In this document: in pieces, positions 153 to 21,897 of the stretch
Layout: every line of letters begins with the position of its first letter
How positions within the stretch are numbered: position 1 is the first letter of the stretch
IMG/VR virus record: IMGVR_UViG_2684622580_000006
DNA length: 34,867 bases
Direction: 5' to 3' (one strand)
Source of the DNA: a virus
Lineage: Duplodnaviria > Heunggongvirae > Uroviricota > Caudoviricetes
Made by a program: the position numbers and the translations under genes
The notes under the pieces: generated by a model
What the model was told of the DNA's origin: nothing
The model's database searches: none
The model's input: the letters and a program-made list of their open reading frames with translations, nothing else

Positions 153-1745
153 TTACTCGATCCCTTTACTACGCAGGTAATCTTCGTAATTACCGCTAAA
201 GTCGATCACGCGTTCCGGGGTGATTTCCAGAATGCGGGTCGCCAGGGAGCTTACGAACTCACGGTCGTGTGAAACAAAGATCAGCGTGCCCTGATACAGT
301 TCCAGCGCCATGTTCAGTGACTCGATGGATTCCATATCCAGGTGGTTGGTCGGTTCGTCCATGATCAGAATGTTCGGCTTCTGCATCATTAACTTACCAA
401 ACAGCATCCGCCCTTTTTCCCCACCGGAAAGCACTTTAGCTGGCTTTTTGATGTCGTCCTGGCTGAACAGCAAACGACCGAGAATGCTGCGTACCGCCTG
501 CTCGTCATCGCCTTCCTGCTTCCACTGACTCATCCATTCGAACACGGTCAGATCATTTTCAAACTCATATTCGTGGTCCTGGGCGTAGTAACCAATGCGC
601 GCGTTTTCAGACCATTTTACGGTGCCGCTGTCCGGTTGCAGATCGCCCACCAGCGTTTTCAGCAGCGTTGATTTACCGACGCCGTTGGTACCCAGTACCG
701 CAAGTTTTTCACCGACCTCCAGCAGCAGGTTGAGATTTTTAAACAGTGGACCGTTATCAAACCCTTTGGTCAGACCTTCCACTTCCAGCGCGTTACGGAA
801 CAGTTTCTTATCCTGTTCAAAACGGATGAACGGGTTCTGACGGCTGGAGGCTTTCACCTCTTCCAGTTTGATTTTATCAATCTGGCGCGCGCGCGAAGTT
901 GCCTGGCGAGATTTCGAGGCGTTGGCGCTAAAGCGGCTAACGAAAGATTGCAACTCAGCAATCTGCGCTTTCTTCTTGGCGTTATCGGCCAGCAGACGTT
1001 CACGCGCCTGGGTCGCCGCCGTCATGTACTCATCGTAGTTACCCGGATAAACGCGCAGCTCGCCGTAATCCAGATCCGCCATGTGGGTACAGACCATGTT
1101 AAGGAAGTGACGGTCGTGCGAGATGATGATCATGGTGCTGTCACGCTCGTTCAGCACCTGTTCCAGCCAGCGAATGGTGTCGATGTCGAGGTTGTTGGTC
1201 GGTTCGTCGAGCAGGAGAATATCCGGATCAGCAAACAGCGCCTGCGCCAGAAGCACACGCAGCTTCCAGCCAGGAGCAACTTCACTCATCGGGCCGTAGT
1301 GCTGTTCCACTGGAATTCCCACGCCAAGCAACAGTTCACCGGCGCGAGCTTCCGCAGAGTAACCGTCCATTTCGCCGTATTTCACTTCCAGATCGGCCAC
1401 TTTATAGCCGTCTTCTTCACTCATTTCCGGCAAAGCATAGATGCGGTCGCGCTCCTGCTTCACTTCCCACAACTCTTTATGCCCCATGATCACCGTATCC
1501 AGCACAGTGAACTCTTCAAAGGCAAACTGATCCTGACGCAGCTTACCAATGCGCTCGTTGGGATCGAGGGAAACGTTACCCAGCGTCGGCTCAAGGTCGC
1601 CGCCGAGAATCTTCATAAAGGTGGATTTACCACTACCGTTCGCGCCAATCAGGCCGTAACGGTTGCCGCCGCCGAATTTGACGGAAATGTTTTCAAACAA
1701 CGGCTTACTGCCGAACTGCATGGTGATATTGTTGCTAAGAAGCAA
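153..1745 (-). CDS. ybiT: ABC-F family ATPase (YbiT-like), host chromosomal gene
   Basis: 530 aa with two ABC cassettes: Walker [10 protein letters not shown] and GTNGVGKST, signature LSGGE, Walker [12 protein letters not shown] / [12 protein letters not shown]; sequence matches my recollection of E. coli YbiT except the first ~8 residues; GC-rich unlike the rest of the window; reported ORF begins with TTG. Confidence 0.9.
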
Positions 1746-1790
1746 AATTGATACTCTCTGCTAAGTGATTGAAAGGATTAGATTATGCAA
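1715..1790. other. Candidate attL / host-prophage junction overlapping the 5' end of ybiT
   Basis: Abrupt GC-rich to AT-rich transition around 1720-1745; only 39 bp separate the ybiT start from the serine recombinase start; small palindrome ttgctaagaagcaa (1731-1744) and a second tgctaag at 1760-1766. Confidence 0.3.
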
Positions 1791-3290
1791 AAGCAAAACG
1801 GGTTAGCTTACTCATACATACGATTTTCGAGCAAGAAACAAGAACAAGGGGACTCAGTAAGACGACAGACTGAACTTGCTGAAAAATACGCTTCATCGAA
1901 CAATCTTACACTATCTGAAAAGAACTTTCAGGATCTGGGGATCTCAGCGTTCAAAGAAGGAAACAGACCTTCACTCGGTGACATGCTTTCTGCTATCGAG
2001 CAAGGAGCAATCGAATCAGGCAGCACGATAATCATCGAATCACTTGATCGCTTGAGTCGTCGGGGTATCGATGTGACTCAACAGATAATCAAGTCAATCT
2101 TACAACACAACGTCTTTATAGCGAGCCTGACAGACGGTCTGTTACTCAATAGAGAATCAGTTAACGACCTTGTAAGCGTGATTAGAATCGCTCTGGCTGC
2201 TGACCTTGCGCATAAAGAATCGGAGAAGAAATCACAGCGTTTGCGTGAGACAAAACAGCAACAAAGAAAAGCTGCTCTTGAGGGTAAAGTAATCAACAAA
2301 ATACTGCCTTTCTGGTTATCAAGAGAAAAAGACCAGTTTGTTTTCTCTGACAGATTTGACGCAGTGAAAAGAATTATCGAACTAAAGAAAAAGGGACTTG
2401 GGACAAATAAAATAGCTAAGACATTAAACGATGAAGGATTTAAACCATTGCGTTCTGCTGGCTGGAATCATACAACTGTTGGTAAAACTCTAAGTTCAGT
2501 TGCTTTATACGGTGCTTATCAAACATCAGAAACGACGAAAGATAGAAAAGTTATTCTGTTGGATATTATCGATAATTATTATCCAGCAGTAATTAGCAAA
2601 GAAGATTGGATGTTATTACAATCAGACGCAAAGCAGAATAAACCGGGGTATAAGTCAGACAAAAATGCTTTCACAGGGTTATTAAAGCACTCTTGCGGAG
2701 GTGCGTTAGTCAGAAAATTCCATGTTGTTACTGGTAAAACGTATCAATACCATGTTTGTGCTAATGCTCGCGATGGTAAATGCACCGTTACGCAGAATTT
2801 TAAAAACATGGAGATTGCTCTTTATAAAATCTTAAAGCACTTAAAGATGGAGAAGAAAACCTCTGTTGATGCGACAATTGCACAAGAACGCGCTCAATTA
2901 AAAGAGCAAATCGACAACTTGAACGGAATGCTTCTAACAATGAAAAAAGTTCCTATGAGTGTTCTTGAGACAATCGGCAATCTTGAGGAAAAGTTACAGG
3001 AACTCGACCAGCAGTTTAAACAACAATCTGATATGGTATTAGCTGAACAATCAGTCGATTTCAACCTCCTGTCGGAAATCAAAGATCCTATCGAATTAAA
3101 CATGATGCTTAAACGAGTTATAAAAGAAATCACGGTATTTAATCTTAAAAAATCTTGGCGAATAAAAGTTCAGTATCTGAATGGTCATTCTCAGAGTTTC
3201 CGATGGGATGGATATAGTATGAGTTTTGTTTCTGACAGCAAAAAACTACTGGAATACATGAACGCTGAGAAAGAGCAATTGGATAACTAA
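1785..3290 (+). CDS. Large serine recombinase (phage integrase, serine type)
   Basis: N-terminal resolvase-like catalytic domain with the serine motif AYSYIRFSSKKQ...RQ; Cys cluster HSCGG...YHVCANARDGKC (zinc ribbon) and C-terminal coiled coil typical of large serine integrases; sits at the element boundary. Confidence 0.85.
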   Translation: MQKQNGLAYSYIRFSSKKQEQGDSVRRQTELAEKYASSNNLTLSEKNFQDLGISAFKEGNRPSLGDMLSAIEQGAIESGSTIIIESLDRLSRRGIDVTQQIIKSILQHNVFIASLTDGLLLNRESVNDLVSVIRIALAADLAHKESEKKSQRLRETKQQQRKAALEGKVINKILPFWLSREKDQFVFSDRFDAVKRIIELKKKGLGTNKIAKTLNDEGFKPLRSAGWNHTTVGKTLSSVALYGAYQTSETTKDRKVILLDIIDNYYPAVISKEDWMLLQSDAKQNKPGYKSDKNAFTGLLKHSCGGALVRKFHVVTGKTYQYHVCANARDGKCTVTQNFKNMEIALYKILKHLKMEKKTSVDATIAQERAQLKEQIDNLNGMLLTMKKVPMSVLETIGNLEEKLQELDQQFKQQSDMVLAEQSVDFNLLSEIKDPIELNMMLKRVIKEITVFNLKKSWRIKVQYLNGHSQSFRWDGYSMSFVSDSKKLLEYMNAEKEQLDN

Positions 3291-3399
3291 CTACAACCAT
3301 AAATGTAACAATACGTATTGCATTTAACTAAATGTTAACCACATTAATATTTTACGTAGCATCCTTGACAAGCTAACATAAGAAAAAATCAGAACTTCG

Positions 3400-3408
3400 T
3401 GTTTTAAT
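3400..3408 (+). promoter_or_regulatory. Possible extended -10 promoter (TGtTTTAAT) for the 3449 gene
   Basis: TGnTTTAAT about 40 nt upstream of the ATG; AAGGAA Shine-Dalgarno precedes the start; a TTGACA hexamer at 3365-3370 is badly spaced. Confidence 0.25.
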
Positions 3409-3448
3409 CTATTGAGTTTCTTACTCATTAACTTCAAAAGGAATCGAA

Positions 3449-4186
3449 ATGAAATTACCAATTGTTGATGTATTTGAGAACCCATACGAATCCTGGACCT
3501 ACAGAAATGCCAGTCAGGAAGAAATGATGGCTGTCTACAGGGCTACTGGCAAATTTGAAACTCATATCAAAGATAAACTGATTGCAAAAATTAAAAATCA
3601 TTTAGATGCAGCAAAACACATGGCAAAAAGAGGTTCGGATAATGGATTAGAGAATTTCATTGACCGATATCTTGACAATAGCGTCAATTATAAAGAACTA
3701 AGACGCGCTATGCCTTCAAAAACTCCAAAAGTGTTATTTGACTATCAACAAAAATATCCTAATTACTCAGTAACCGAGGTGGATAAAGAAATCAATAGCA
3801 TCGGTCATACACTAAGCGAAGGTCAATATCTTTTTCATGGTGGTGCATGGGTAAATGGAGCATCAAATCAATTCAAATTAACAGCACCACTTTCAACAAG
3901 TTTTTGTCCTCAAGTTGCATTAAGAAATGCTGAATGGAGAGGGAAAGCATATGATAACAATAAAATAGAGTTATTTGTATTACATACAGTGAATCCTATC
4001 ACTAATGTTTTTGCTTTTCCTAGAAAGAATGCAAGTATGGGAAATGAAAAAGAGATTCTTTTTGCATCAGGGGCGACCCTGATTAGGCGAGCCACTCATT
4101 TAATACGTGATGACTATCCGGCTGGAAAATATGAACATAAGGATAAAAAAATCCCAATCTATGTAGTAGAAGTTGACATTTCATAA
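3449..4186 (+). CDS. Hypothetical protein (cargo gene next to the integrase); weak STS...ExE pattern
   Basis: 245 aa ORF with a good SD; contains PLSTSF and NEKEILF spaced as in R-S-E ADP-ribosyltransferases, but the Arg motif is not convincing (FHGG instead). Confidence 0.6.
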   Translation: MKLPIVDVFENPYESWTYRNASQEEMMAVYRATGKFETHIKDKLIAKIKNHLDAAKHMAKRGSDNGLENFIDRYLDNSVNYKELRRAMPSKTPKVLFDYQQKYPNYSVTEVDKEINSIGHTLSEGQYLFHGGAWVNGASNQFKLTAPLSTSFCPQVALRNAEWRGKAYDNNKIELFVLHTVNPITNVFAFPRKNASMGNEKEILFASGATLIRRATHLIRDDYPAGKYEHKDKKIPIYVVEVDIS

Positions 4187-4197
4187 TACAATTCATG

Positions 4198-4220
4198 AGG
4201 GAGTTGTTGCTCCCTTATTT
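4198..4220. terminator. Bidirectional intrinsic terminator between convergent genes
   Basis: agggag-ttgttg-ctccct hairpin followed by tatttt; lies between the stop at 4186 (+) and the stop at 4215 (-). Confidence 0.5.
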
Positions 4221-4862
4221 TACGCTCGTCCACTTAGATTCTGAGTTCCATTTACCGATTCGAGAAAAAAACGTATCTTGTTCATTTCCTTTATAACTAC
4301 GATGAACACCATCAGAAGCGTGATTTCTTGCCGATTTCTCAAGAACCTCCCAGATTGAGTTCATAACAGCTTCGGTTTCGTTTTTAGATTCATTATCATC
4401 GTATTCGATATTAACTGTTAATTTATCCATAGAACCAGTAAACAGATTAAAACTCTCTGTTAGACTGCCAGTATTCGGATTCAGAAAACAAATATCAATT
4501 TTAACGTCTGCTCTGTTCAAAGCTTTTGTTCGAATCAAGTTAATATATTCTTTTCGGATATTAGCCAGCTTAACGGTCATACCGATGTTGCTAATTTCTT
4601 TTTCTTCGCTGATTGAACTGATATCAGTAAAGTCACCAGCGGCAATATAATTTTTACCTTGATATTGCAAGTCGTAATAAGCATCAGTTAACAACAGTTC
4701 TGCGCCGTTATGCATCTTAATCTGAACAAGATGAAACAACGTGCCAACACTGAACAACTGACCAGTAGTCAGTTCAGTATAAGCAGTGCCGTTAAAATCG
4801 TTATACGCTTCGATGAAGTCGGGGTCTTTTCTCAGTCTGTTAAATTGGTCTTTTACTGACAT
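4215..4862 (-). CDS. Hypothetical protein (second gene of a minus-strand pair)
   Basis: 215 aa ORF; start overlaps the upstream gene stop by 1 nt (translational coupling); no motif I recognise. Confidence 0.6.
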   Translation of the reverse strand: MSVKDQFNRLRKDPDFIEAYNDFNGTAYTELTTGQLFSVGTLFHLVQIKMHNGAELLLTDAYYDLQYQGKNYIAAGDFTDISSISEEKEISNIGMTVKLANIRKEYINLIRTKALNRADVKIDICFLNPNTGSLTESFNLFTGSMDKLTVNIEYDDNESKNETEAVMNSIWEVLEKSARNHASDGVHRSYKGNEQDTFFSRIGKWNSESKWTSVK

Positions 4863-5437
4863 TACACCACCTCTGTTGCAGTGAGTTTAATATTTGAAAT
4901 TGATGCTAAGTCTAACGGGATAGTATCGTTCGTTAGGATGAATCGTCCTTTTGTTCCTCTGTAACTGACAGTTTCACCAGCTTGAACGTTCTGCAACAGA
5001 TTCGGAAATAGTTTCATCTCTCCACCTGCTTTGACATCCTCCGTCACGGTGTACAGCTTGGAGTGATTCTGAAACTGAACAAGTGCTCCCGCTTCTAAAG
5101 TATCTGCAAAGCTGTTCAGAGTGACCTTACGCGCTCCTTTGTTAGCTGTAACAGATGCTTGGATAAGTCCCTGAGCCGAGCCTTTATAGTCAGTCAAGTA
5201 GCTTAACGGAAAGTCAAACGGTTGACCTTGTTGATGCATCGCGATAAAGCGTTGAACGTGTCTTGTGTCCTGCGACATATAATTCACAGTGAAATTCAAT
5301 TCGAAATATTGAACGCCTGTATAACGTTTCTGAAAACGTCCTGATACTGCTCTGTTAGAGAAAAACGGAGCATTTGATTTAAGCTGAACATCGGTCAGCC
5401 TAACGTCTGTGTCTAATAGATTCATAAGTCCTCTCAT
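4862..5437 (-). CDS. Hypothetical protein (first gene of a minus-strand pair; start may be the internal Met at 5425)
   Basis: 191 aa ORF; AGAGGA precedes the ATG of MNLLDTD at 5425, whereas the ATG at 5437 has no SD. Confidence 0.6.
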   Translation of the reverse strand: MRGLMNLLDTDVRLTDVQLKSNAPFFSNRAVSGRFQKRYTGVQYFELNFTVNYMSQDTRHVQRFIAMHQQGQPFDFPLSYLTDYKGSAQGLIQASVTANKGARKVTLNSFADTLEAGALVQFQNHSKLYTVTEDVKAGGEMKLFPNLLQNVQAGETVSYRGTKGRFILTNDTIPLDLASISNIKLTATEVV

Positions 5438-5470
5438 AAATAAGATTTTAACTATATTTATGAGGCCAAT

Positions 5471-5956
5471 ATGGAACTAAACGCAATGCTTCGTTATGAC
5501 GAAGGCGAAAAACTCACGATGTATAAAGACACAGAAGGATATTTCACAATCGGTGTCGGACACTTGATTACAAAAAATCCATCAAGAGACTACGCTTTGA
5601 AAGAACTTGATAAAGCTGTTGGTCATCCTTGTTATGGATATATCACAGCGAAAAAATCTGATCAGTTACTGAATATTGATGTTAACTCAACTCTGCGTCA
5701 GCTTAGTAAAACAGAACTGCATCCAGCTTATATCAGAATCGATACAGCCAGGCGTTCAGCGTTAATCAATATGTGTTTTCAACTCGGCGTTTCTGGCGTA
5801 TGTCAGTTCAAGAAATTCTTGGGATACATGGCTGTTGGAGATTATCAAAATGCGGCTGATGAAGCTTTAGACTCAAGATGGGCACGTCAGACTCCTAATA
5901 GAGCAAAACGTGTAACTGATGTTATTAGATATGGCGATTTCAGAAGTTATAATTAA
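5471..5956 (+). CDS. T4-type lysozyme (endolysin, glycoside hydrolase family 24)
   Basis: 161 aa; N-terminus MLRYDEGEKLTMYKDTEGYFTIGVGH aligns to T4 lysozyme [26 protein letters not shown] with catalytic E11, D20, T26 conserved; C-terminal RWARQTPNRAKRV also matches. Confidence 0.9.
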   Translation: MELNAMLRYDEGEKLTMYKDTEGYFTIGVGHLITKNPSRDYALKELDKAVGHPCYGYITAKKSDQLLNIDVNSTLRQLSKTELHPAYIRIDTARRSALINMCFQLGVSGVCQFKKFLGYMAVGDYQNAADEALDSRWARQTPNRAKRVTDVIRYGDFRSYN

Positions 5957-6000
5957 AAATTTATATTATCTAATTTGAACAGCATCAAGTTGATGAATCG

Positions 6001-6038
6001 GACTAAGCAGATATGTAATTAACACCATCAGCTTAGTC
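6001..6038. promoter_or_regulatory. Operator-like inverted repeat GACTAAGC-N22-GCTTAGTC just upstream of the -10 element
   Basis: Perfect 8-bp inverted repeat at 6001-6008 and 6031-6038; a third half-site GACTAAGCA at 6248-6256 in the leader. Confidence 0.35.
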
Positions 6039-6049
6039 TACATATAGCT

Positions 6050-6058
6050 TGTTATAAT
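6050..6058 (+). promoter_or_regulatory. Extended -10 sigma70-type promoter (TGtTATAAT)
   Basis: Perfect TATAAT at 6053-6058 preceded by TG at 6050-6051; about 250 nt upstream of the 6310 ORF. Confidence 0.45.
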
Positions 6059-6309
6059 TTTTTACGACTCAACGAAGTCTTGTTAGGATAATGTAAACAA
6101 ATCCGTTTTTTTAGATGTGAGTAATATTAGCAATGTTCATCTTAGAATGTGATATCGAAGGAAACTCGAAAATGATAATAGCTTTACACTATTGAGAAAA
6201 TTTGGTTGAGGCTTCAAAATAGAGCATTCATACGTGATCAATAGCCAGACTAAGCAAGCAACAGCTAAACCCCGTAACGTACTGATTAAATTGATAATTG
6301 AAGGTGCAT

Positions 6310-6597
6310 ATGTTAAAAGTTACTGGTCTTGATAAGCTTCAGAAAGAACTCAAGGATGCAAAGCGTATACTGAGTGAGCTGGATGGCGAGCTAGGAGTCG
6401 TAAAGTTTAACCCTAACGACCCTGCTAGCATCGAGTCGGCAATTCAAACAGTTAATCACATGATTGATGAACGCATTGGCGGATGTTCAACCAACTCCAT
6501 AGTCGGCTCGCTTGCGCAGCAGATGAAGGAAACATACAGAGAAGGCATTCTTAAAAAAGCTGCCGAAGCCAGATTGACTTCAAGTGAGGATGAGTAA
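6310..6597 (+). CDS. Small protein (95 aa), first gene of a two-gene cargo operon
   Basis: ATG at 6310 preceded by GAAGGTG; the track ORF starts at TTG 6298; stop overlaps the next ATG by 1 nt (TAATG). Confidence 0.6.
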   Translation: MLKVTGLDKLQKELKDAKRILSELDGELGVVKFNPNDPASIESAIQTVNHMIDERIGGCSTNSIVGSLAQQMKETYREGILKKAAEARLTSSEDE

Positions 6598-7493
6598 TGG
6601 CTCAAGATATTTTTTCTGAAATGAACAATGCTGTTCTGGATTTACAGGCTTCACAATACCAGACCTTTGAACGTCCACTCAAAAAGCTTGCTCAGCTTCT
6701 AAAACATTCCGATCTTGAATCATACAATGCAGACCTGACTGAAGGACTCAATCTTACAGAGTTTCTCGCAGAAAGTGAGAAGACTGGAGGAAGTATGGCT
6801 GGGAGTGCCCAGCTTGTCTGGCCAGATGATGCAAGAAAAACACTAGGCCTTACATTACTTTTGATTTTTAAGTTAGCAGAAGATCCTAATTATGCAATCA
6901 ACTTTGGACATCATTTTTTCTATTCCGGAAGTAAAGTTATAGCAGGCATTCATTCGATTACAGGACAACTTATCATTCCTTTCGTTAGAGATTACAAAAA
7001 TTATGTTCAGTCTAAGGGAAGCACAGAAACTATGTTGAAGCCGCAGTTTTCGAACAAAGTTTTCATTGTTCATGGTCATGATGATGGCGCCCGTGAAACA
7101 GTCGCAAGGTTTCTTGAACGTATAGGTTTAGAAGCAATCATATTACATGAGCAAGCTAATCAGGGACGAACTGTCATTGAGAAAGTTATAGCAAATAGTG
7201 ATGTTGGATTTGCTGTTGTATTGCTAACACCAGATGATGAAGGTTGTGCTAAAGGAGGAATACCAGAACCAAGGGCAAGGCAGAATGTAATGCTAGAATT
7301 AGGATATTTTATCGGGCGTTTAGGCAGAGAGAAAGTATGTGCACTAAAACGCGGCTCACTAGATATTCCAAGTGATTTTGCTGGGGTTGTTTGGGAAAAT
7401 ATGGATAGCAGTGGAGGCTGGAAGCAAGCACTCGCACGAGAACTTGAAGCTGCTGGTCACAATATTGATTGGAATAAAGCAATGCGGAGTTGA
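6597..7493 (+). CDS. Protein with a C-terminal TIR-like nucleotide-binding domain (COG4271 / PF10137-like); candidate defence effector
   Basis: C-terminal segment KVFIVHGHDDGARETVARFLERIGLEAIILHEQANQGRTVIEKVIANSDVGFAVVLLTPDDEG matches the consensus I remember for the 'predicted nucleotide-binding protein containing TIR-like domain' family; the N-terminal ~150 aa are unrecognised. Confidence 0.55.
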   Translation: MAQDIFSEMNNAVLDLQASQYQTFERPLKKLAQLLKHSDLESYNADLTEGLNLTEFLAESEKTGGSMAGSAQLVWPDDARKTLGLTLLLIFKLAEDPNYAINFGHHFFYSGSKVIAGIHSITGQLIIPFVRDYKNYVQSKGSTETMLKPQFSNKVFIVHGHDDGARETVARFLERIGLEAIILHEQANQGRTVIEKVIANSDVGFAVVLLTPDDEGCAKGGIPEPRARQNVMLELGYFIGRLGREKVCALKRGSLDIPSDFAGVVWENMDSSGGWKQALARELEAAGHNIDWNKAMRS

Positions 7494-7832
7494 TTTTATA
7501 TAGCTCCATTTTTAGCGATACTGGCGTTTCATCGACAATTAAAAATTTGGCTGCTGATTAGCCTAAAACGCAGCCAAATATAAATCATTAATGATATTGC
7601 TTAAATAAGTTTTAACGACTCATCTTCAGCGCCCCCCTCTAACAAAAAATAATAGTTACTCTGGGACTTCTGAAACACCGAGATGTTTCGAACGCTCAGC
7701 TTTTTTCTCGCGAGTGAAAATCCAAATCGTGTTCAGTTCATCATCGATAGACAGGAACTATCCCGAATTCCTCCCGCTGTAGAGATAAATACAGAGATAA
7801 ACCCTTATTCCCTCTACACTTGGAGATATTTA

Positions 7833-8372
7833 ATGGCTCGTAAAACTTATGTAAGCATGACTGAAATGGCTAAACGTTATGGTTATAGCCTCAACGCTAT
7901 CAAGAGCTGGCGTGCAGAAGGACTGCCCTACTCTGATAATCCTTCTGGTATTCCAGAAGACGAAGGCACTTTATGGATTGTTCAGAACAAAATTAACCCA
8001 ATGCGAAATATGTCCATCAAGGACGAATTCGAACGAGAAAAACTCCGTGAACAGGTGGCTAAAGCTGACTTGGCAACTTATGCAGCACAAGAAAAATCTG
8101 GTGAATTAATACCAGTGGATTATGTTCAAGCTGAGTTGAACCGTTTTTGTTCGCAACTGAAAGACAAAATCAGATTAATTCCGAAACAACACGCTTTGGA
8201 GATTCTTGAATCTGCCGTTTCAGTTGAAGAACTTCGTGATTGTCTGAAAGAGAAAATCGACCAGACGTTACGTGAGGTTGACAGTTTGTTTGAAGAACCT
8301 CAGTTACAGGACAATTCCTCAGACGAGTACAAAGAAAAGACAGAGAATGATACTGAGATTGACCTTGATTAA
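7833..8372 (+). CDS. Terminase small subunit (lambda Nu1-like)
   Basis: From the ATG at 7833 (GGAG 7 nt upstream) the product is 179 aa; N-terminal wHTH MTEMAKRYGYSLNAIKSWRAEGLPY resembles Nu1 LADIFGASIRTIQNWQEQGMPV; EREKLREQV resembles Nu1 ENEKLRREV; the track ORF is extended to 7683. Confidence 0.65.
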   Translation: MARKTYVSMTEMAKRYGYSLNAIKSWRAEGLPYSDNPSGIPEDEGTLWIVQNKINPMRNMSIKDEFEREKLREQVAKADLATYAAQEKSGELIPVDYVQAELNRFCSQLKDKIRLIPKQHALEILESAVSVEELRDCLKEKIDQTLREVDSLFEEPQLQDNSSDEYKEKTENDTEIDLD

Positions 8373-8387
8373 GGGAGCATCGCTCCC
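8373..8387. terminator. Stem-loop gggagc-atc-gctccc right after the terS stop
   Basis: 6-bp GC-rich stem immediately after the stop at 8370-8372; weak U-tract; same stem sequence as the hairpins at 4198, 13232 and 13505. Confidence 0.35.
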
Positions 8388-8600
8388 TTATCGCACAGCA
8401 CTTTTGAAGATCTGTTTCAGACGGTTGATAGAGACACGATCTGGTGAAAGATGTCGGATTTGTATACCACAATATTTCATTACATCATGATTACAAAGGA
8501 TTTGATGGCAGTTGTAATGCGATTCAACGCGATGCATCACCGTGTCCGTTCTTTTCAAAGAGCATTTGCAGTTTGCACACTGATGGTCAAATTTTGTCAT
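8388..8600 (-). CDS. Small Cys/His-rich protein (about 70 aa), possible zinc-binding
   Basis: Minus-strand ORF; ATG at 8600 preceded by GAGGAAG; TATAAATA on the minus strand at 8622-8629; product has QCANCKC and HYNCHQILCNH clusters. Confidence 0.4.
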   Translation of the reverse strand: MTKFDHQCANCKCSLKRTDTVMHRVESHYNCHQILCNHDVMKYCGIQIRHLSPDRVSINRLKQIFKSAVR

Positions 8601-8768
8601 AGATACTTCCTCTAAAACTGTATTTATACACTGTGCACAGTGATGATATATTACTATGCATGAACTTGATTTCATGCTTTATAAGTTTTATTGAGTCTCA
8701 CAAAATGATAGATTATCCTATGTGAATACAAACAGTTATAACCGACAGATTAATGGGTTGAGGACGTA

Positions 8769-9245
8769 ATGGACAATGAACTGAAAAAACTTATACACGC
8801 ATTCAGAAATGCTCTCGTTATGGCTGCGGATACACATTCATTTGGGTGTTTCAGTATGCCAAGATGGTCAGAGTTAAACAGTTTTCCACATGGTTGCTGT
8901 GACTTAGCAAGTAATTTTCTGGCTCAATATCTCACAGACTATGGATATGAGCCTGAAATAATTTGGTTTGAATGCTGCGAAGAACTAAACAAATATATCA
9001 AATCACACGTAGTTGTTAGGATTAACGATTACTATGTTGATTTAACACGAAATCAATTTGATGATCATAATGGAAGAGTATTGATTGAAGACAAATTCGG
9101 TTCCATTCCACGATTAATTAAACAAATAAAATCAATGAACTCAAATAATGTTGAGGATAGAAATATCAATATTAATACATTTAATTCAAGTGGGTATGAA
9201 CTCTACAGCTATATCAAAAAAATTGCGAATAATTTGATTAACTGA
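8769..9245 (+). CDS. Putative Cys-His-Asp fold protein (papain/transglutaminase-like), paralog 1
   Basis: 158 aa; Cys in FPHGCCDLASNFLAQYL, then SHVVVRINDYYVDLT; shares the H-x2-V-x-[VI]-x2-Y-x2-DL[ST] pattern with the next ORF; GAGGA SD; very AT-rich. Confidence 0.5.
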   Translation: MDNELKKLIHAFRNALVMAADTHSFGCFSMPRWSELNSFPHGCCDLASNFLAQYLTDYGYEPEIIWFECCEELNKYIKSHVVVRINDYYVDLTRNQFDDHNGRVLIEDKFGSIPRLIKQIKSMNSNNVEDRNININTFNSSGYELYSYIKKIANNLIN

Positions 9246-9341
9246 ATAAAATTATTTTAAAAAGGAAAAGAACCAGCATTGGAAATTTATTAAACATGTT
9301 GGTTTTATAATCGATAAAACAATCTGATTGGTGAGAATAAA

Positions 9342-9848
9342 ATGAATAATAATGAAATGAAGCAACAAATAAATGAATTGTCTTCTTATGTTCTGGACAA
9401 GACAATCAAAAAAGAGAAGGCATGTCTCTACATGAGTGCATATCTTTGCGCACTTATCAATGACAACATGAGAATAACCGCAAGATTGATTTCTGGGTCA
9501 CTTGTTATAAAAAACACTAAGATTTTCTCACATGAGCCTATACTGCCGATACTTACTTCGGGGAGCAATTATACCGGAGAATGGGATGGTCATGCTTGGG
9601 TTGAGGTCGCTGGATATATATGCGATTTATCAATCTTTTGTACAATTTTTTCAGAAAGTACATCAACTGAATTGCAGGATGTTTTCATGCAAACATTTGA
9701 TAGATACTATGAATTCTTAATCGCACCAAGAGAAAAACTAGAAGCAGCAGATATTTGCTATAAAGAATGCGAAGAATTAGGTAATGAACAAATAGATATT
9801 CTGATTCACTCAGGAATCAAATCAGGTATCTTAGTCAATCCAGAATGA
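9342..9848 (+). CDS. Putative transglutaminase-like cysteine peptidase fold protein, paralog 2
   Basis: 168 aa; KACLYMSAYLCAL (Cys), then GHAWVEVAGYICDLS, which matches the transglutaminase-like HAWxEV...D signature; stop overlaps the next start (ATGA). Confidence 0.5.
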   Translation: MNNNEMKQQINELSSYVLDKTIKKEKACLYMSAYLCALINDNMRITARLISGSLVIKNTKIFSHEPILPILTSGSNYTGEWDGHAWVEVAGYICDLSIFCTIFSESTSTELQDVFMQTFDRYYEFLIAPREKLEAADICYKECEELGNEQIDILIHSGIKSGILVNPE

Positions 9849-10567
9849 TTACAGAGGATAAAATGGAAGCAAACACTTTTATCGACCGTTTTTTTCATAG
9901 TTCTTATGAATTGACAGATTTTCGTCACGTTGGCGAACGAGACATTAACTCATTGTATACATTTCTGAATTTACTCCATTCTCTAAATGATCGTTTCAGC
10001 AAGGAATTTGGGATAGCTCAACTGGCCAAAAGGCCAGAGTTTAAATTATTACGTTTGATACGTAATTATTTTCAACATGTAGGGGATGTGGACGAATTCC
10101 GTCTATTTCAGACTCGTGATGCCATTTTGACTTCACATATGGAAATGATCATCATCCCAACAGCTTTAGTAGCTCGTGCCATCGAAAGTTTTCGAAACCA
10201 ACCACATAATAAGAAAGATCCAGTACGGGCTGAAAAAGAACTTTCATCCATTGCATCAGCTATCAGCGATTTTGAATATCTTTGTGATAATACGGATCTT
10301 TTTAGAGAAAACCCTCCTTTTCATGATACTGATAATACATATTTCTTAGGTTTTGACCTTTATAAATCCGTGTATAATATTACCAATATCGTAGCAGATA
10401 TATGCAGGAAAAGGGATGAATTTGCAATAAAAAAATGCGTTCAAGAGCTTGAAAAAGAATACACCGAAATGAATAACATACCAAAAGAAAATATATTATT
10501 ACTTGCGGGAAGTCCACCGCCACTACTAACAACCCAAGGTTTTGTGTTTCCTAAAAGGGATAGATAA
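9845..10567 (+). CDS. HEPN-motif protein (Abi-like putative RNase)
   Basis: 240 aa; contains LIRNYFQH, i.e. the R-[N]-x3-H (Rx4-6H) HEPN motif in its usual hydrophobic context; translationally coupled to the preceding gene. Confidence 0.45.
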   Translation: MITEDKMEANTFIDRFFHSSYELTDFRHVGERDINSLYTFLNLLHSLNDRFSKEFGIAQLAKRPEFKLLRLIRNYFQHVGDVDEFRLFQTRDAILTSHMEMIIIPTALVARAIESFRNQPHNKKDPVRAEKELSSIASAISDFEYLCDNTDLFRENPPFHDTDNTYFLGFDLYKSVYNITNIVADICRKRDEFAIKKCVQELEKEYTEMNNIPKENILLLAGSPPPLLTTQGFVFPKRDR

Positions 10568-10608
10568 ATTAAAGTAATTATAGTTCGTATAGATTTTCTT
10601 TTACCAAA

Positions 10609-10650
10609 TATTGTTGATTCGCTATTATACCTTAATAGCAATCAACAATT
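10609..10650. terminator. Imperfect 17-bp palindrome between convergent stops (bidirectional terminator or protein site)
   Basis: ttgttgatt(c)gctatta - tacct - taatagcaatcaacaa; lies exactly between the stops at 10567 (+) and 10656 (-). Confidence 0.4.
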
Positions 10651-10655
10651 GATTT

Positions 10656-11264
10656 TCATATTGCTTTGGTCGGCTTTGAAATTTCAATTTTCACAATTAA
10701 CAGTTCTTCGTCAAAAGATAACTTATTCCCCTTCATTACTTTTCTCATAACGCCGTTCTCATTTTCGAGAGCAGCGTTTTTTAGTTTTAAGGCTTCAATC
10801 TCCTTTCTCAATTCTTCCAATTCGTTGGTGATAACATCAACTTTCTGTTCAGTAGGAAATTCAATTTCTTCTTTAATCTCTACAAAACTCCCAACATATT
10901 GCTGAACAAAGTTATCGGTGTCTTTTTTGTGAATCATAGTCAAGTCTGAACCTAAAGCTTTCCAGTTACGACCTTCACAGCAAACGATCACAGCTTTTGT
11001 CATATCACTTGAATAAGCAACGATAGCAGGCTTGTCGTTCAGTTCTGACATACCGATTTGGAATTTACGCATATCTTTTACAGTCAACGCGTTTTCAACT
11101 TTGCTTAACATCTTTGCTCTGATGTTACGGTGAATCTCTGTAAAGCTACCGATAAAACTTTTCAGCTTGTTTCTGTTATTGGTCATTTCGTTAGTCTTAA
11201 CGATTTTTTTATTCAAGCTAACGTTAGTAGTCCCGTTCAAGTTTTCAAAGATTGAGAAATTCAT
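10656..11264 (-). CDS. Hypothetical protein with C-terminal coiled coil (possible regulator / antirepressor-like)
   Basis: 202 aa; C-terminal ELEELRKEIEALKLKNAALENE heptads; start overlaps the stop of the upstream small HTH ORF. Confidence 0.55.
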   Translation of the reverse strand: MNFSIFENLNGTTNVSLNKKIVKTNEMTNNRNKLKSFIGSFTEIHRNIRAKMLSKVENALTVKDMRKFQIGMSELNDKPAIVAYSSDMTKAVIVCCEGRNWKALGSDLTMIHKKDTDNFVQQYVGSFVEIKEEIEFPTEQKVDVITNELEELRKEIEALKLKNAALENENGVMRKVMKGNKLSFDEELLIVKIEISKPTKAI

Positions 11265-11428
11265 TATTTGATGTCCTTTTTAACAGGTTGAGTTCTGATA
11301 TTTCGTTTCTTGCAAGCGTTATATAGCGTTGCTTTGTTCATCTGTTTAGATTCTGCAATCTGCTGAAATGTCTCACCAGCATCTAGACGTGATTCGATTT
11401 CAAATTTGTTTGGAATAAACTTTGCCAT
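11264..11428 (-). CDS. Small HTH DNA-binding protein (54 aa), below the ORF-track size cutoff
   Basis: Hand translation MAKFIPNKFEIESRLDAGETFQQIAESKQMNKATLYNACKKRNIRTQPVKKDIK; resolvase/Hin-type HTH; stop overlaps the ATG of the 202-aa gene (TAATG). Confidence 0.5.
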   Translation of the reverse strand: MAKFIPNKFEIESRLDAGETFQQIAESKQMNKATLYNACKKRNIRTQPVKKDIK

Positions 11429-11451
11429 TTGGTTGCCTTTTTATGATGTTG

Positions 11452-11477
11452 AAAAAAGAGCGCTCTTGCGAGCGCTT
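11452..11477 (-). terminator. Intrinsic terminator oriented for minus-strand transcription
   Basis: Stem agcgctc / gagcgct with loop ttgc; plus-strand A-run at 11452-11457 gives a U-tract on the minus-strand RNA; sits in the leader of the HTH operon. Confidence 0.45.
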
Positions 11478-11491
11478 CAAACTTTAAGGAA
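11476..11491 (+). repeat. 16-bp direct repeat ttcaaactttaaggaa, copy 1
   Basis: Identical to 12404-12419; contains an AAGGA ribosome-binding site followed by a 7-codon micro-ORF. Confidence 0.6.
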
Positions 11492-12403
11492 TTTTTAAAT
11501 GAACTTATCGTTGTTCACATAGCTATTTTATATCGGCTATTCGATAGCGTAAACAAAGAGAGAAAACAACGAGGAGAAGAAACTCTCTATTGTTCTTCAT
11601 AGGGTATTTAGTGCCCTCACCGAAAGTGTAAGCAAAATTTTTAAAATAATTTGAAAGCAATCGGAGCAAACGTATCGATGCACTGATAAAACGCATCGAT
11701 AGCGCATCGATGCTTCTCGGCAAAGCGCATGGACCTTGAAGAAAATCGCCCTATAAGAACAATTGGATAAAGATGATATGGAAGGATATAGAAGCAGTAA
11801 ACACTACAAAACCAGATCTGAAAAACAGATTTCGCGAAGCGCGGGCGAAGCCCTAATTAATAACATTAGCGCGTAAGCGCGACAGATAGAAGTTAATCAA
11901 CATCGCTATGATCATAGATGTTGAACTTGATGATCAGTAATTATTACTAGATACGATTATTAGCGCTTCGCGCGTTCGCTACGCTCACAATATTGTTTTC
12001 TGATCATAATCAATAACTTCTAACTGCATTATAACCAGATCTGAAAACCTGATAAACTTAACTATCGTTAATTAAATCAGATAGCGTTAGTGAGTTCTCC
12101 ATCGCTTCGCTCAGTCGAACGGGCAAGCGCCGTCTTTGATAGAGATCTGGTCTTTATCGTTTTAGCTGACCTTATCGTCCCTCCTCGCTTCTCCCTGCTC
12201 TACTGACCATCTTGATACACCTTGTTCATCTATACCAGCCAAATTGAACCTGATGCACCCTGCTTTGATACCGACCTTGATTGTTGTCGCTTCGCCTGCG
12301 GCTCGCTTACCACCGTTATTGAATCGGACCAATAGAGATTCCTAGTTTACTAAATACAAGCGTGATTCAGAGAAACATCTGAAAGTCAACACTTCTATTC
12401 AAA
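11492..12403. other. About 0.9 kb non-coding, repeat-rich region (candidate ncRNA, iteron origin, or insertion remnant)
   Basis: No credible ORF; three GCATCGAT palindromes at 11676-11716; two aaccagatctgaaaa repeats (about 11810 and 12035); several CGCTTCGC-like motifs. Confidence 0.4.
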
Positions 12404-12419
12404 TTCAAACTTTAAGGAA
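12404..12419 (+). repeat. 16-bp direct repeat ttcaaactttaaggaa, copy 2 (RBS of the homing endonuclease gene)
   Basis: Identical to 11476-11491; immediately precedes the ATG at 12427. Confidence 0.6.
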
Positions 12420-12426
12420 ACTCAAA

Positions 12427-13041
12427 ATGTACAAAAGAACTATCAACAACGTAACTTACAAAACCCGTTCTGAACTGGATACTGAGCCAACCGGATTCAG
12501 CGTTTATAAAACCGTTTTCAGTATCAACAATGAATCATTCGTTTATTACGGCAAACAAGCTTTCAACGGTCAGCCTGATATGTCGTATATCGGTTCTGGT
12601 CGCAGAGTTCAGGAAAAACTCGCTGAAATGACCGAGTCAGATATCGTTTATAAAATCGTTCTACAGAATTTTGAATCAGAACAAGAAGCGTATGACTTCG
12701 AATCTGAATGCATTCAATCAGCACGCAAATCGAAGGTTAATATTTTAAATATATCTAAAGGAAACTCCGGTGGTAAGGTCTTTGACAAAATGACAGAAGA
12801 ACAAATTAAACAACGTAACGCGAAAATCTCTATGAGCATGATGGGTCACGAAGTCTCTGATGAAACTCGTCGTAAAATCTCAGAAGCGAAATCTGGTCAG
12901 ACTCGCTCTGATAATACGAAACAAAAAATCGGTGATGCTCTGCACGGTCGCAAAACTGGACCTAAATCAGAAGAAACCAAACGCAGAATGTCAGAAGCAC
13001 ATAAAGCACGTCACGCTAACAAGGAGACAGCGAATGTCTAA
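12427..13041 (+). CDS. GIY-YIG homing endonuclease with NUMOD3-like repeats (Seg / I-TevI-like)
   Basis: 204 aa; N-terminal GFSVYK...FVYYGKQ...YIGSGRR (GIY-YIG spacing) and C-terminal repeats HEVSDETRRKISEAKSG / SEETKRRMSEAHK typical of NUMOD3. Confidence 0.75.
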   Translation: MYKRTINNVTYKTRSELDTEPTGFSVYKTVFSINNESFVYYGKQAFNGQPDMSYIGSGRRVQEKLAEMTESDIVYKIVLQNFESEQEAYDFESECIQSARKSKVNILNISKGNSGGKVFDKMTEEQIKQRNAKISMSMMGHEVSDETRRKISEAKSGQTRSDNTKQKIGDALHGRKTGPKSEETKRRMSEAHKARHANKETANV

Positions 13042-13285
13042 AACTCAGCAGTTTCTAAGACCTGTTATCGTTGCGCTTGTTGTCGTAGGAGGTTGCGCTA
13101 TTGAATCGTGTAGCAGCACAGTATCAAAAGAATCGATTATAAAGCGTGACATCATATGCGCAAATCAGGAGTACAATCCTAAAACTGCAAAGCATGACAT
13201 TGAAATGTGCCGAAAGGGATTCAACAAAAAAGGGAGCATCAGCTCCCTTTTATCATTTAAATCCATGAACCAGCAGCTGCTCTAA
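13034..13285 (+). CDS. Small lipoprotein (83 aa), candidate superinfection-exclusion or spanin-like protein
   Basis: ATG at 13034 preceded by AAGGAG; signal peptide MSKTQQFLRPVIVALVVVGG followed by the lipobox Cys (VVGGC); the track ORF 12860-13285 is an artefactual upstream extension. Confidence 0.6.
   Translation: MSKTQQFLRPVIVALVVVGGCAIESCSSTVSKESIIKRDIICANQEYNPKTAKHDIEMCRKGFNKKGSISSLLSFKSMNQQLL
13226..13253. terminator. Bidirectional terminator hairpin gggagc-atca-gctccc embedded in the 3' end of the lipoprotein ORF
   Basis: 6-bp stem flanked by an A-run (13226-13231) and a T-run (13248-13251); for the minus strand it sits right after the stop of the 59-aa ORF. Confidence 0.45.
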
Positions 13286-13432
13286 TCTCTTCTCTAGCAA
13301 CTTGTTCGCTGAATCTTCGCTGAAGATGATTGATTGAACGTCACAGTCGGTTTTCAGTCTTAATGCTGCATCATCAACCGACATACGTTCGTTTTGTACA
13401 TCACCATTTTTGTAAATAACTTTAACAATCAT
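13253..13432 (-). CDS. Small protein (59 aa), convergent with and overlapping the 3' end of the lipoprotein gene
   Basis: Hand translation MIVKVIYKNGDVQNERMSVDDAALRLKTDCDVQSIIFSEDSANKLLEKRLEQLLVHGFK; AAGGAG 6 nt upstream of the ATG; terminator right after the stop. Confidence 0.4.
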   Translation of the reverse strand: MIVKVIYKNGDVQNERMSVDDAALRLKTDCDVQSIIFSEDSANKLLEKRLEQLLVHGFK

Positions 13433-13500
13433 GCTTGCTCCTTAGCATTGTTTGAAACATGATGATTTCACATTTCAACTTATATCTCAATCTACATACA

Positions 13501-13528
13501 GAAAATGGGAGCATTAGCTCCCATTTTT
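13501..13528. terminator. Intrinsic terminator downstream of the minus-strand HTH gene
   Basis: atgggagc-atta-gctcccat hairpin flanked by aaaa and ttttt. Confidence 0.5.
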
Positions 13529-13929
13529 CATTGTGAACCTCCATTTGTTTTATTGGTACAGCGTAAAAACTGATCGCGTATATACGCTTTTGATTTACCT
13601 GTCATTCGCTTACCGAATTCAATGAAATCTCCTTTCGTCTGACGATAAACAATCAAACTGATTTCAGAAGGTTTTTTGTGAGCACTATTTGATGCTAGCT
13701 GTTTTTCAATGTTCGGGATTTCTGATTCTTTAACTTCACCAGCTTCAATTTCAGAAGCAATAACTTCCTCTTCAACTGGCTTCACAGTGTATTTTTCAAT
13801 ATTTGCTTTAACGCGACGAACAACAGAGCGGGAAACTTCAAATTGTTCAGCAATCTTACGTTCTGATAAATCTGTTCCTGCGTTAATCATTGCAGCTATT
13901 TTATTTTCGATAGTCGGTTCAGTTTTCAA
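13528..13929 (-). CDS. HTH DNA-binding protein (133 aa), divergent from the large terminase gene
   Basis: N-terminal HTH AGTDLSERKIAEQFEVSRSVVRRV; TTG start with GGAG 8 nt upstream. Confidence 0.55.
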   Translation of the reverse strand: MKTEPTIENKIAAMINAGTDLSERKIAEQFEVSRSVVRRVKANIEKYTVKPVEEEVIASEIEAGEVKESEIPNIEKQLASNSAHKKPSEISLIVYRQTKGDFIEFGKRMTGKSKAYIRDQFLRCTNKTNGGSQ

Positions 13930-14039
13930 TTCGATGTTCTCCGTGTTGAGATGGATTGAACTTTAACAATCCAGGTCCGAGGTGCAAGCGTCCTGAAAAT
14001 TATTTGTTGGATTCTTCATAAATACACTCAGAGGTGACT

Positions 14040-15923: not shown

Positions 15924-15926
15924 ATA
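15919..15926 (+). promoter_or_regulatory. TATAAATA (T4 late-promoter-like octamer) upstream of the 15944 gene
   Basis: Exact TATAAATA overlapping the terL stop, 18 nt before the next ATG. Confidence 0.35.
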
Positions 15927-15943
15927 TAAGAAAGGAGAACTCA

Positions 15944-16438
15944 ATGCAAAAATCAAATTCAGAAATTTACATCGGTGAAAAACTCGCTGTTTATAATCCT
16001 GAAGGTGCAACAGTCTCCATAGGCTCAACTGAAACTAAATTGTTTTCTCAAACTGATTGTCCAGCGAATATCTCGGTGGACACATCAGATTTTATCGAAG
16101 GAACTTTTTCTGCTGTTGTTCTCTATGAAGGTGCGCTTATCAGTAACAGCATTATCAAAGTGAAATCACCATTCGTTTCAAAAACGAAAAAAGAACAACT
16201 CAGGGAAATGATTAACGATATCGATATGGTTATTCAGTATCGTCTGACAAGTAACGAAGAAGCTATTCAGCAAATGAGCATTAACGGTAAATCATTCGTA
16301 TATGAAACCCTTGATTCTCTGCTATTAGCTCGCAAACGTCTATTAGCAAACTTGGCGAATCTGATTAAGTCAGAACAAATGGCAAACGGTAAATCTCCGA
16401 TTGTTACTATTAAAGCGAGGTTCACGAATCCATCATGA
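15944..16438 (+). CDS. Hypothetical protein between terminase and portal (possible head-assembly protein)
   Basis: 164 aa; AAGGAG SD; overlaps the portal start by 4 nt. Confidence 0.6.
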   Translation: MQKSNSEIYIGEKLAVYNPEGATVSIGSTETKLFSQTDCPANISVDTSDFIEGTFSAVVLYEGALISNSIIKVKSPFVSKTKKEQLREMINDIDMVIQYRLTSNEEAIQQMSINGKSFVYETLDSLLLARKRLLANLANLIKSEQMANGKSPIVTIKARFTNPS

Positions 16439-18000: not shown

Positions 18001-18019
18001 ATACATTCAGTAAAACAAA

Positions 18020-18037
18020 GAGCGTCGAAAGACGCTC
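18020..18037 (+). other. Stem-loop with GAAA tetraloop in the 5' leader of the capsid gene
   Basis: gagcgtc-gaaa-gacgctc perfect 7-bp stem 17 nt upstream of the ATG; no U-tract after it. Confidence 0.35.
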
Positions 18038-18053
18038 AACAAGAGGAATCGAA

Positions 18054-20030: not shown

Positions 20031-20101
20031 TTAACACAGGAGAACAAGCTTCTCCTGCTAAAGTTAAAAAGCCACGTGCTCTTAAGGTGAAATAAAAACG
20101 A

Positions 20102-20126
20102 AGGACTCCGAAAGGGGTCCTTTTTT
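20102..20126 (+). terminator. Intrinsic terminator after the capsid gene
   Basis: aggactcc-gaaa-ggggtcct stem with GAAA loop followed by tttttt. Confidence 0.6.
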
Positions 20127-20136
20127 CGTTTCTGGA

Positions 20137-20147
20137 CTAAATAAAAG
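20137..20147 (+). promoter_or_regulatory. Late-promoter-like motif CTAAATAAAAG
   Basis: One of several copies of CTAAATAAA(G) lying 13-30 nt upstream of late-gene start codons. Confidence 0.4.
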
Positions 20148-20161
20148 AAAAAGGAGACAAC

Positions 20162-20458
20162 ATGATTTTCCCATATACAGAAAAACAAAAACAGTCTTTC
20201 TTAACTCGTTTCGGTCAAAAAATTAAAATCAACGATAAAGACGCTCTCGGCATTGTTGAGATTGAAATTAATAACGATAACGGACAAGTAAGCGAGACAC
20301 TTTATATAACCGCTGATATTAATTCAATTAAGCAAGACGATTCTATTTTGTTAAACGAGATTTTGTATAACGTCGCTTATCTGACAAACGATGGTTCAGG
20401 ACTCGTGAATTGTTATCTTGCTTATAAAACTGAACAGGAGACCTCATTCTATGATTAA
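20162..20458 (+). CDS. Hypothetical structural protein (98 aa), possible head completion / adaptor
   Basis: AAGGAG SD; position between the capsid gene and the tail genes. Confidence 0.55.
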   Translation: MIFPYTEKQKQSFLTRFGQKIKINDKDALGIVEIEINNDNGQVSETLYITADINSIKQDDSILLNEILYNVAYLTNDGSGLVNCYLAYKTEQETSFYD

Positions 20459-20849: not shown

Positions 20850-20856
20850 GGCAGAA

Positions 20857-21885: not shown

Positions 21886-21897
21886 CGGATAAAGAAA

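Follow-up and report, generated by a model that had tools for sequence, protein, structure and literature searches.

We analysed a stretch of 34,867 nucleotides of viral DNA (IMG/VR record IMGVR_UViG_2684622580_000006), hereafter the window, which carries near its left end the gene ybiT, encoding an ABC-F translation factor, back to back with the gene of a large serine integrase (int). The body of a prophage follows int and runs off the right end (Table 1). A preliminary description, made from the letters alone, had proposed that the prophage was inserted by this integrase at an attB site inside the 5' coding end of ybiT, and that an attP arm of the phage rebuilt a slightly different N-terminus and supplied new upstream regulatory DNA. 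In this work we located both prophage junctions, reconstructed the attachment (att) sites and compared the arm with native and related loci.

The junction in ybiT and its attachment sites

The product of the hybrid gene was covered by the NCBIfam equivalog model PRK15064 over residues 1-529 of 530, with 1067 bits for a curated cut-off of 762, and is a full-length YbiT, N-terminus included. In a full-length alignment with K-12 YbiT (PDB 9njf_Y) it differed by V3L, S5N and V7I only, the remaining differences being accounted for by the E-to-Q changes of the PDB 9njf construct. The native gene starts with GTG TTA GTT TCC AGT AAC GTC ACC ATG (M-LVSSNVT-M), in agreement with PDB 9njf. The K-12 N-terminus MLVSSNVT, which the preliminary description had set against the MLLSNNIT (TTG start) of the window, was thus right, as was its view that the rest of the protein is identical. 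The phage TTG is in frame and lies exactly at the native start position; the gap separating it from the integrase start measures 39 bp, as had been counted.

A 391-bp probe spanning the junction (1400-1790) was compared by megablast with 5426 complete Escherichia coli genomes and aligned in 5423 of them. Among the prophage-free rows listed, every match stopped at probe base 327, which is window position 1726. Two empty loci that were aligned with the window showed perfect identity through ...CATGGTGA / ...CTGCATGGTGA and scattered matches beyond, which places a sharp attL breakpoint at 1726/1727. Over positions 1-1500 the GC content is 0.52-0.56; past about 2000, and up to the right end of the window, it is 0.33-0.41. 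The composition switch previously set at about 1720-1745 was thus seen as a drop in GC, but the breakpoint itself is sharp, host identity ending at 1726 and not running through 1745.

The opposite junction, attR, lies about 590 bp past base 34867. It was seen in two genomes with the same prophage, L3Cip3 (L004, core near 32082) and 2017.06.05CC (L029), where it reads ...AAAAAGCATA-GTGA-CGTTACTGGAAACTAACAC... next to ldtB, or in fuller context, from the prophage end, ...TTGCTTTGAAAAAGCATA-GTGA-CGTTACTGGAAACTAACACAGGCG.... Two island-bearing genomes (L017, L028) have an attR with the same GTGA core. attR holds the displaced native upstream region of ybiT with its promoter, Shine-Dalgarno (SD) sequence, GTG and codons 1-7. 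We therefore rejected two simpler explanations, namely that the window carries a natural ybiT allele, since the displaced native 5' end sits at attR, and that the junction lies elsewhere, which the attR data contradict.

The core GTGA spans ybiT codons 7-8, and attB thus lies inside the 5' coding end of the gene. The outer limits of attL are approximate and inferred, the site having been drawn from the empty-site alignments and six attL variants. attP was not observed and was reconstructed from attL and attR as ...TTGCTTTGAAAAAGCATA GTGA TATTGTTGCTAAGAAGCAAAATTGATACTCTCT.... Because GTGA is the only sequence shared by the att sites, the crossover must lie within it. When each central dinucleotide was scored for dyad symmetry, GT was the best centre in the prophage-type attP (13/24), the island-type attP (14/24) and attB (9/24). 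In a GTAA variant from metagenomes, moreover, no core dinucleotide other than GT is kept. The best dyad centre points to a crossover in codons 7-8, probably at GT (1723-1724), the first two bases of the Thr8 codon ACC. The sites, attP being reconstructed, have the features of serine integrase sites: short attP and attB, an imperfect dyad, a non-palindromic 2-bp crossover and minimal identity.

The 501-aa protein encoded by int contains a Resolvase catalytic domain (PF00239, E = 3.1e-21, residues 8-163, 76 bits for a cut-off of 23), with the motif YIRFSSKKQ near the N-terminus. It is followed by a Recombinase domain (PF07508, E = 3.4e-14, residues 192-284), in the order and within the size (about 450-700 aa) of large serine integrases. 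PHROG 95 'integrase' matched residues 8-469 (E = 4.6e-74). The zinc ribbon Zn_ribbon_recom (PF13408) was found below threshold, though where it would be expected (E = 0.0093, 16.8 bits for a cut-off of 25.3, residues 298-340); the sequence shows Cys300, Cys323 and Cys332 as well as a heptad-rich stretch (about 350-420). The closest homologues in 50,697 phage records were YbcK-like recombinases, with 30% identity over 81% coverage (E = 4e-42). The 501-aa protein is probably the enzyme that integrated the prophage, and the anatomy of the sites suggests that it is an active integrase.

The proposals of an attB inside ybiT, of a prophage integrated by a serine integrase and of a second junction at the other prophage end were thus borne out, the prophage nature resting on the phage structural genes presented below and the enzyme on its Resolvase and Recombinase domains and PHROG 95. 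The phage arm encodes a substitute for an N-terminus whose original is found at attR, as had also been suggested.

The gene directly downstream of int encodes 245 aa and is kept beside int in all prophage-type copies. Its only match was PHROG 30303 (unknown function, E = 3e-61), and the Pfam, PHROG and PADLOC searches gave no function for it. Its position makes it a candidate accessory or directionality factor worth testing.

Coding likeness of the attP arm and signals of the hybrid gene

We propose that attP and attB were recombined by a large serine integrase within GTGA (1723-1726), most likely at GT. The native ybiT promoter, SD, GTG and first seven codons would thereby have been moved about 34 kb to attR, beside ldtB, and the int-proximal attP arm would have become the new 5' end of ybiT, with its AGAGAG, TTG and codons for LLSNNI. 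The product would be a full-length YbiT with three conservative changes. By rebuilding it, the arm would act as a built-in 'repair patch', and a conserved ABC-F translation factor would not be destroyed by the integration. We give a probability of about 0.8 to this reading, in which the arm keeps ybiT whole.

Part of the evidence for it comes from the coding likeness of the arm. Arm codons 2-7 share 9/18 bases with the host (50% DNA identity), and LLSNNI compared with the native LVSSNV has three identities and three conservative changes, with a BLOSUM62 score of 19. This score was reached by a fraction P = 3.9e-4 of sequences with the same 9/18 matches placed at random, and, with no stop codon, in 4e-5 of random sequences of 38% GC. 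At Ser4 all three bases are changed (host TCC, phage AGC) and at Leu2 TTA is replaced by CTT, the amino acid being kept both times. The arm thus mimics YbiT at the protein level above its DNA identity. The other attP arm, which continues the frame, served as internal control: it had 7/18 matches and LFQSND for QFGSKP (P = 0.066, not significant), and in the island type it contains a stop codon.

The variation of the arm goes in the same direction. Across five arm variants the changes CTT/CTC/TTG (Leu), AAT/AAC (Asn) and TGC/TGT (Cys) are synonymous, and the sole replacements concern position 4 (S/C) and position 7 (I/V). The native N-terminus, read from 120 YbiT cluster representatives, is M-L-[VS]-[ST]-[SN]-N-[VI]-T; L2, N6 and T8 are invariant and all kept by the hybrid, and N5 and I7 are natural variants. 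HMMER alignments of YbiT with its paralogue YheS begin at residue 3, which indicates that the rebuilt N-terminal residues belong to the conserved domain. From what is generally known of ABC ATPases, we take these residues to make up the first beta-strand, which directly precedes the aromatic residue of the A-loop. We infer that the preservation of YbiT is the selective reason for the coding capacity of the arm.

MLLSNNIT was present in one of the 120 cluster representatives, in a gene lying 38 bp from a divergent serine integrase; natural allelic variation was rejected as its origin, this single instance being itself beside a serine integrase. No native MLLSNNIT or MLLCNNIT was found among the 120 clusters as a source from which the arm could have been captured, and its capture from the ybiT of a more distant, AT-rich host is at most conceivable.

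The hybrid reading frame is complete (530 aa) in the window and also in 16 distinct related loci, and the Prokaryotic Genome Annotation Pipeline (PGAP) annotated ybiT as intact in 30 of the 30 lysogens listed. PGAP does not always start the gene at the phage TTG (530 aa) but in some lysogens at Met9 (522 aa) (L007/L008 753-2321 versus L001 20153-21745 and L028 16810-18402), the arm being in frame in all.

The arm also supplies a candidate ribosome-binding site. The predicted duplex with the 3' end of the 16S rRNA is -3.3 kcal/mol in the window type and -5.0 kcal/mol in the island type, for -4.1 kcal/mol with the native AGGA, and the arm SD and native AGGA have the same 6-7 nt spacing. By this prediction the arm SD is as strong as the native one, and no SD was found ahead of Met9 in hybrid ybiT. 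None of the 16 distinct integrase loci has a change in AGAGAG; the changes in the 14-nt block AATTGATACTCTCT fall outside it. Further upstream, the native TGgCATAAT ends 35 nt before GTG, and TTGCATAAT of the phage arm ends 36 nt before TTG, its GCATAAT (ybiT-sense strand) overlapping the int ATG. The overall similarity of the native and phage upstream sequences is marginal (shuffle P = 0.0125) and the GCATAAT motif is absent from the island type. Hybrid ybiT would be transcribed from a phage-side promoter and translated from TTG.

Table 1. Positions of the features discussed (window coordinates unless a locus is named)
Feature	Position	Strand	Details
Hybrid ybiT coding sequence (ABC-F translation factor)	153..1745	minus	530 aa, TTG start (list of open reading frames)
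Host-derived or shared core portion of ybiT	153-1726		
Phage-derived portion of ybiT	1727-1745		
Phage-encoded ybiT codons 1-7	1727..1745	minus	TTG CTT CTT AGC AAC AAT A(TC) = M L L S N N I
Native counterpart of codons 1-7			GTG TTA GTT TCC AGT AAC G(TC) = M L V S S N V
attL	1699..1760		Host half-site left of core; phage half-site right, including near-invariant AATTGATACTCTCT (1746-1759)
Common core GTGA	1723..1726		Sole sequence common to attL, attR, attB and reconstructed attP
SD-like AGAGAG	1754..1759	minus	6-8 nt upstream of TTG, phage-supplied
Phage intergenic spacer between divergent ybiT and int	1746..1784		39 bp; int SD AAAGGA at 1772-1777
Large serine integrase (int)	1785..3290	plus	501 aa; Pfam, PHROG
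245-aa gene	3449-4186	plus	
Phage_lysozyme (T4-type lysozyme)	5471-5956		Pfam
Small open reading frame	6298-6597		
TIR-domain protein	6597-7493	plus	
Stretch similar to Escherichia phage DCP80	17538-18279		740 bp
Last-but-one prophage gene	34511..34867	minus	118 aa; start is last window base; no family match
Prophage body	1727..34867, running off the window		About 38% GC (host 51%); about 33.7 kb in total
About 9-kb island	L017 (KOr024) 1-7900; L028 (O111:H- 11128) 18437-27200		

Spread of the element and alternative readings

The site is occupied in 59 of the 5426 complete E. coli genomes, in which ybiT is joined to a recombinase gene. Seven carry the prophage type, and about 50 others carry at the same site an island of about 9 kb; many of the latter are Shiga toxin-producing or enterohaemorrhagic E. 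coli (STEC or EHEC), including EHEC O111:H- 11128. The island encodes an integrase 89% identical to that of the window, a helix-turn-helix protein, an HNH endonuclease, a 213-aa resolvase-type recombinase and a DNA methyltransferase, and in one strain contains IS1. Altogether 28 loci with 16 distinct integrases (74-100% identical) were collected from E. coli, divergent Escherichia, Enterobacter chuandaensis, Leclercia adecarboxylata, IMG/VR and metagenomes. All have attL at the same ybiT position with a TTG-LL[S/C]NN[I/V]T arm, and the 14-nt block AATTGATACTCTCT showed two single-base variants only. Loci located through the integrase (6 in IMG/VR, 8 close relatives in metagenomes, 8 places in assemblies) were all attL forms in ybiT.

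A phage segment 99.5% identical to that of the window, with a 100% identical integrase, was found at ybiT of a divergent Escherichia, the ybiT of which is 97.9% identical and has a different neighbouring downstream gene; a near-identical segment in a divergent host speaks for horizontal spread in recent times. In the assembly collection, 229 blocks list exactly this integrase protein. The same integrase family and arm, combined with different cargo, mark the int-arm module as a portable cassette, which by all appearances brings different cargo into the same site across strains and genera.

The prophage itself is fully equipped with head, tail and lysis genes. Positions 20448-34867 matched L3Cip3 (L004 47091-32671) with 99.99% identity, the match ending 590 bp short of the junction, and PGAP annotated in the 99.99%-identical copy a terminase gpA, a portal, a major capsid, a tail tip fibre and a tail fibre domain protein. 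With the lysozyme gene, terminase, portal, capsid, tail and lysis genes form a block bounded by att sites. When 22 kb of the prophage were compared by megablast with the 50,697 phage records, a single match was obtained, covering 3% of the query at 75% identity; the sole DNA likeness to an isolated phage is the stretch similar to phage DCP80 (75%). Phage genes with no relative among isolated phages indicate an uncharacterised prophage.

In the identical copy the annotation also names a NUMOD3 DNA-binding protein, a protein with an endonuclease domain and a regulator of the GntR family; this regulator might be the phage repressor. The TIR-domain protein, beside a small open reading frame, matched PADLOC PDC-S35 (E = 1e-70), a candidate defence family, as well as TIR effector models, and is likely an anti-phage cargo gene. 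Near-identical prophage copies differ by insertion sequences (IS): two IS3-family copies are present in L3Cip3, a DDE_Tnp_1 element lies within the 245-aa gene of E-93, and the window copy has none (insertions at L001 24788-26016 and 41803-43031, at L032 5301-6731, and in L029). The copy of 2017.06.05CC has about 1.3 kb of extra sequence. On the host side, an IS621 (IS110-family) transposase lies directly downstream of ybiT, left of window base 1 (L001 18894-19874; L002 495-1475), both in the lineage of the lysogen and in the nearest strain with an empty site. Window positions 1-152 hold a sequence resembling repetitive extragenic palindromes, the usual IS621 target.

Several observations weigh against the proposed integration and repair patch. 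TTG is a weak start codon, and in some lysogens PGAP calls ybiT from Met9. In the Leclercia adecarboxylata NCTC13032 lysogen (L010 2476-3963) the ybiT reading frame has 495 aa and an altered C-terminus; this frameshift near the 3' end could be gene decay or an assembly indel error. A strict sigma-70 scan of the ybiT strand near 1746-2100 found no promoter. The candidates from a looser position weight matrix (PWM) were weak (5.5 for TTGCTT-17-TTCAAT, for example) and are not conserved between the two intergenic types, the intergenic sequence itself differing from the prophage type to the island type. Over the first 20-60 integrase codons, conservation at synonymous sites was not above the ordinary, which gives no sign of a conserved promoter embedded in the 5' end of int. 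The conservation of the arm could be partly due to integrase binding instead of coding. Finally, the phage, IMG/VR, metagenome and assembly collections yielded neither a free phage nor an attP or circular form, and a search of IMG/VR with the exact degenerate attP pattern gave 0 matches.

This last result is one of three that would fit a defective, fixed remnant with a fossil junction, along with the IS3, IS4-like or IS1 insertions in the copies of several strains and the existence of a 9-kb island type lacking structural genes. The window copy is nevertheless free of IS and has an intact integrase and a full head, tail and lysis gene set, and the near-identical copy in divergent Escherichia, the 229 assembly blocks with the integrase and relatives in at least three genera point to recent spread. 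We consider a fossil junction possible but doubtful.

The weak start and promoter signals raise the question of whether integration silences or cripples ybiT, leaving it unexpressed or truncated to Met9, with the look-alike codons a side effect of the resemblance of attP to attB for integrase binding. Partial identity between attP and attB arms is common for serine integrases, and the nearly invariant AATTGATACTCTCT block sits in the attP arm. ybiT is moreover one of four E. coli ABC-F paralogues, so that its loss might be tolerated. Such a side effect does not account well for a protein-level similarity far above the DNA expectation (P = 3.9e-4) and confined to the arm that becomes coding, the other arm failing the similarity test and, in the island type, having a stop codon; nor does it explain why changes among arm variants are mostly synonymous. 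The SD has native strength by prediction and native spacing, the native promoter region is equally weak by consensus (PWM scores of 4.8-5.8), and ybiT is intact in old, IS-decayed island lineages (O111, KOr024). Silencing of ybiT is thus unlikely. As to the new regulatory DNA put forward in the preliminary description, the upstream sequence is indeed replaced, but the phage DNA yielded only promoter candidates, on a par with the weak native ones.

A reciprocal promoter swap would put YbiT under phage-side control and let the host ybiT promoter drive a terminal two-gene phage operon. The displaced native promoter, SD and GTG at attR point into the co-oriented genes of 148 and 118 aa (L004 32040-33027; L029 1527-2480), and no terminator-like site was predicted between them on that strand. 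This orientation is observed, and these genes may be transcribed from the displaced promoter. The attR-proximal genes are, however, not conserved in the island type, where about 1 kb precedes the first co-oriented gene or IS1 has taken its place, and the phage arm upstream of the 148-aa gene has, as read from its sequence, an extended -10-like TGgTATTAT of its own. Neither gene could be given a function, Pfam, PHROG and PADLOC yielding no assignment. We regard such a swap as distinctly unlikely. The 148-aa gene, just past the window end, has C-terminal membrane segments, and the native GTG at attR would also open a 23-codon hybrid frame (MLVSSNVTMLFQSNDFYVNLELI).

An arm that goes beyond a passive patch, as an evolved exchange of 5' control regions by which the phage tunes YbiT and reads the host regulation of ybiT and the cassette spreads this rewiring to prophages and islands across Enterobacteriaceae, appears improbable, at the low end of what we would entertain. 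In such an exchange the ribosome-associated YbiT would receive its transcription and translation signals and an N-terminal strand from the phage, and the captured host promoter would drive a terminal operon that encodes, among others, a small membrane protein.

Comparison with known systems

With this locus a natural attB of a large serine integrase is defined, which virtually all E. coli genomes, those of K-12 and B derivatives among them, carry intact. Large serine recombinases join attP and attB without host factors, and excision requires a recombination directionality factor of the phage. If active, the integrase would provide a host-factor-independent, unidirectional enterobacterial integration system that spares its target gene. 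The attP arm would be a clean example of protein-coding selection for a host gene, with the two arms as internal control, and suggests that a serine integrase, though independent of homology, can insert into a conserved gene and cost the host little. The analysis also places the island of about 9 kb of EHEC O111:H- 11128 and about 50 other genomes in the same cassette family.

The integrase resembles the large serine integrases of phiC31, Bxb1, TP901-1, Listeria A118/LI and SPbeta (SprA) in its resolvase, recombinase, Cys-rich and heptad-rich order, and its sites resemble theirs in being short, with few shared bases, an attB in a conserved gene and int beside attP. It differs in that it is at most 25-30% identical to any integrase of isolated phages. 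To our knowledge, serine-integrase prophages are uncommon in Enterobacteriaceae, the host range of this integrase. The nearest homologues, the YbcK-like serine recombinases of lambdoid E. coli phages and of DLP12, are far too distant to predict site specificity. The phage records listed give them no other annotation than hypothetical, YbcK or recombinase-family protein, and we know of no evidence that they serve as integrases of lambdoid phages. In the literature, we found no account of ybiT as an attachment site of an enterobacterial prophage or integrase, only an unrelated Mu-like Campylobacter prophage beside a ybiT homologue.

Like the prophages of active lysogeny (A118-like phi10403S in comK, SPbeta in spsM, skin in sigK), the element is a serine-recombinase element inside a host coding sequence. 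Those elements split the gene and excision is needed to restore it, as described for SPbeta and spsM (PMC5499854). The hybrid ybiT frame is complete in the lysogen and does not wait for excision, so that the active-lysogeny switch model does not apply.

Parallels are found among gene-reconstituting integrations, such as those of phage 21 and e14 at the 3' end of icd, of phages targeting tRNA or tmRNA genes and of Streptococcus pyogenes prophages that duplicate gene ends. As in these cases, the ybiT arm is a similar, non-identical surrogate of the displaced gene end and the reading frame stays intact; at the sequence level, the in-frame equivalent is present in the arm and the displaced original at the other junction. 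The classical cases involve tyrosine integrases with a long identical core, rebuild the gene by homology and mostly concern 3' ends. Unlike the icd and tRNA cases, the ybiT arm rebuilds a 5' end, by a serine integrase with few shared bases, as a surrogate conserved in its protein and not in its DNA sequence, and rebuilding a 5' end obliges the phage to bring signals for translation and transcription as well. The ybiT element is a well-documented new example of a kind of integration already known; its mechanism is not new, and it leaves the understanding of integration unchanged.

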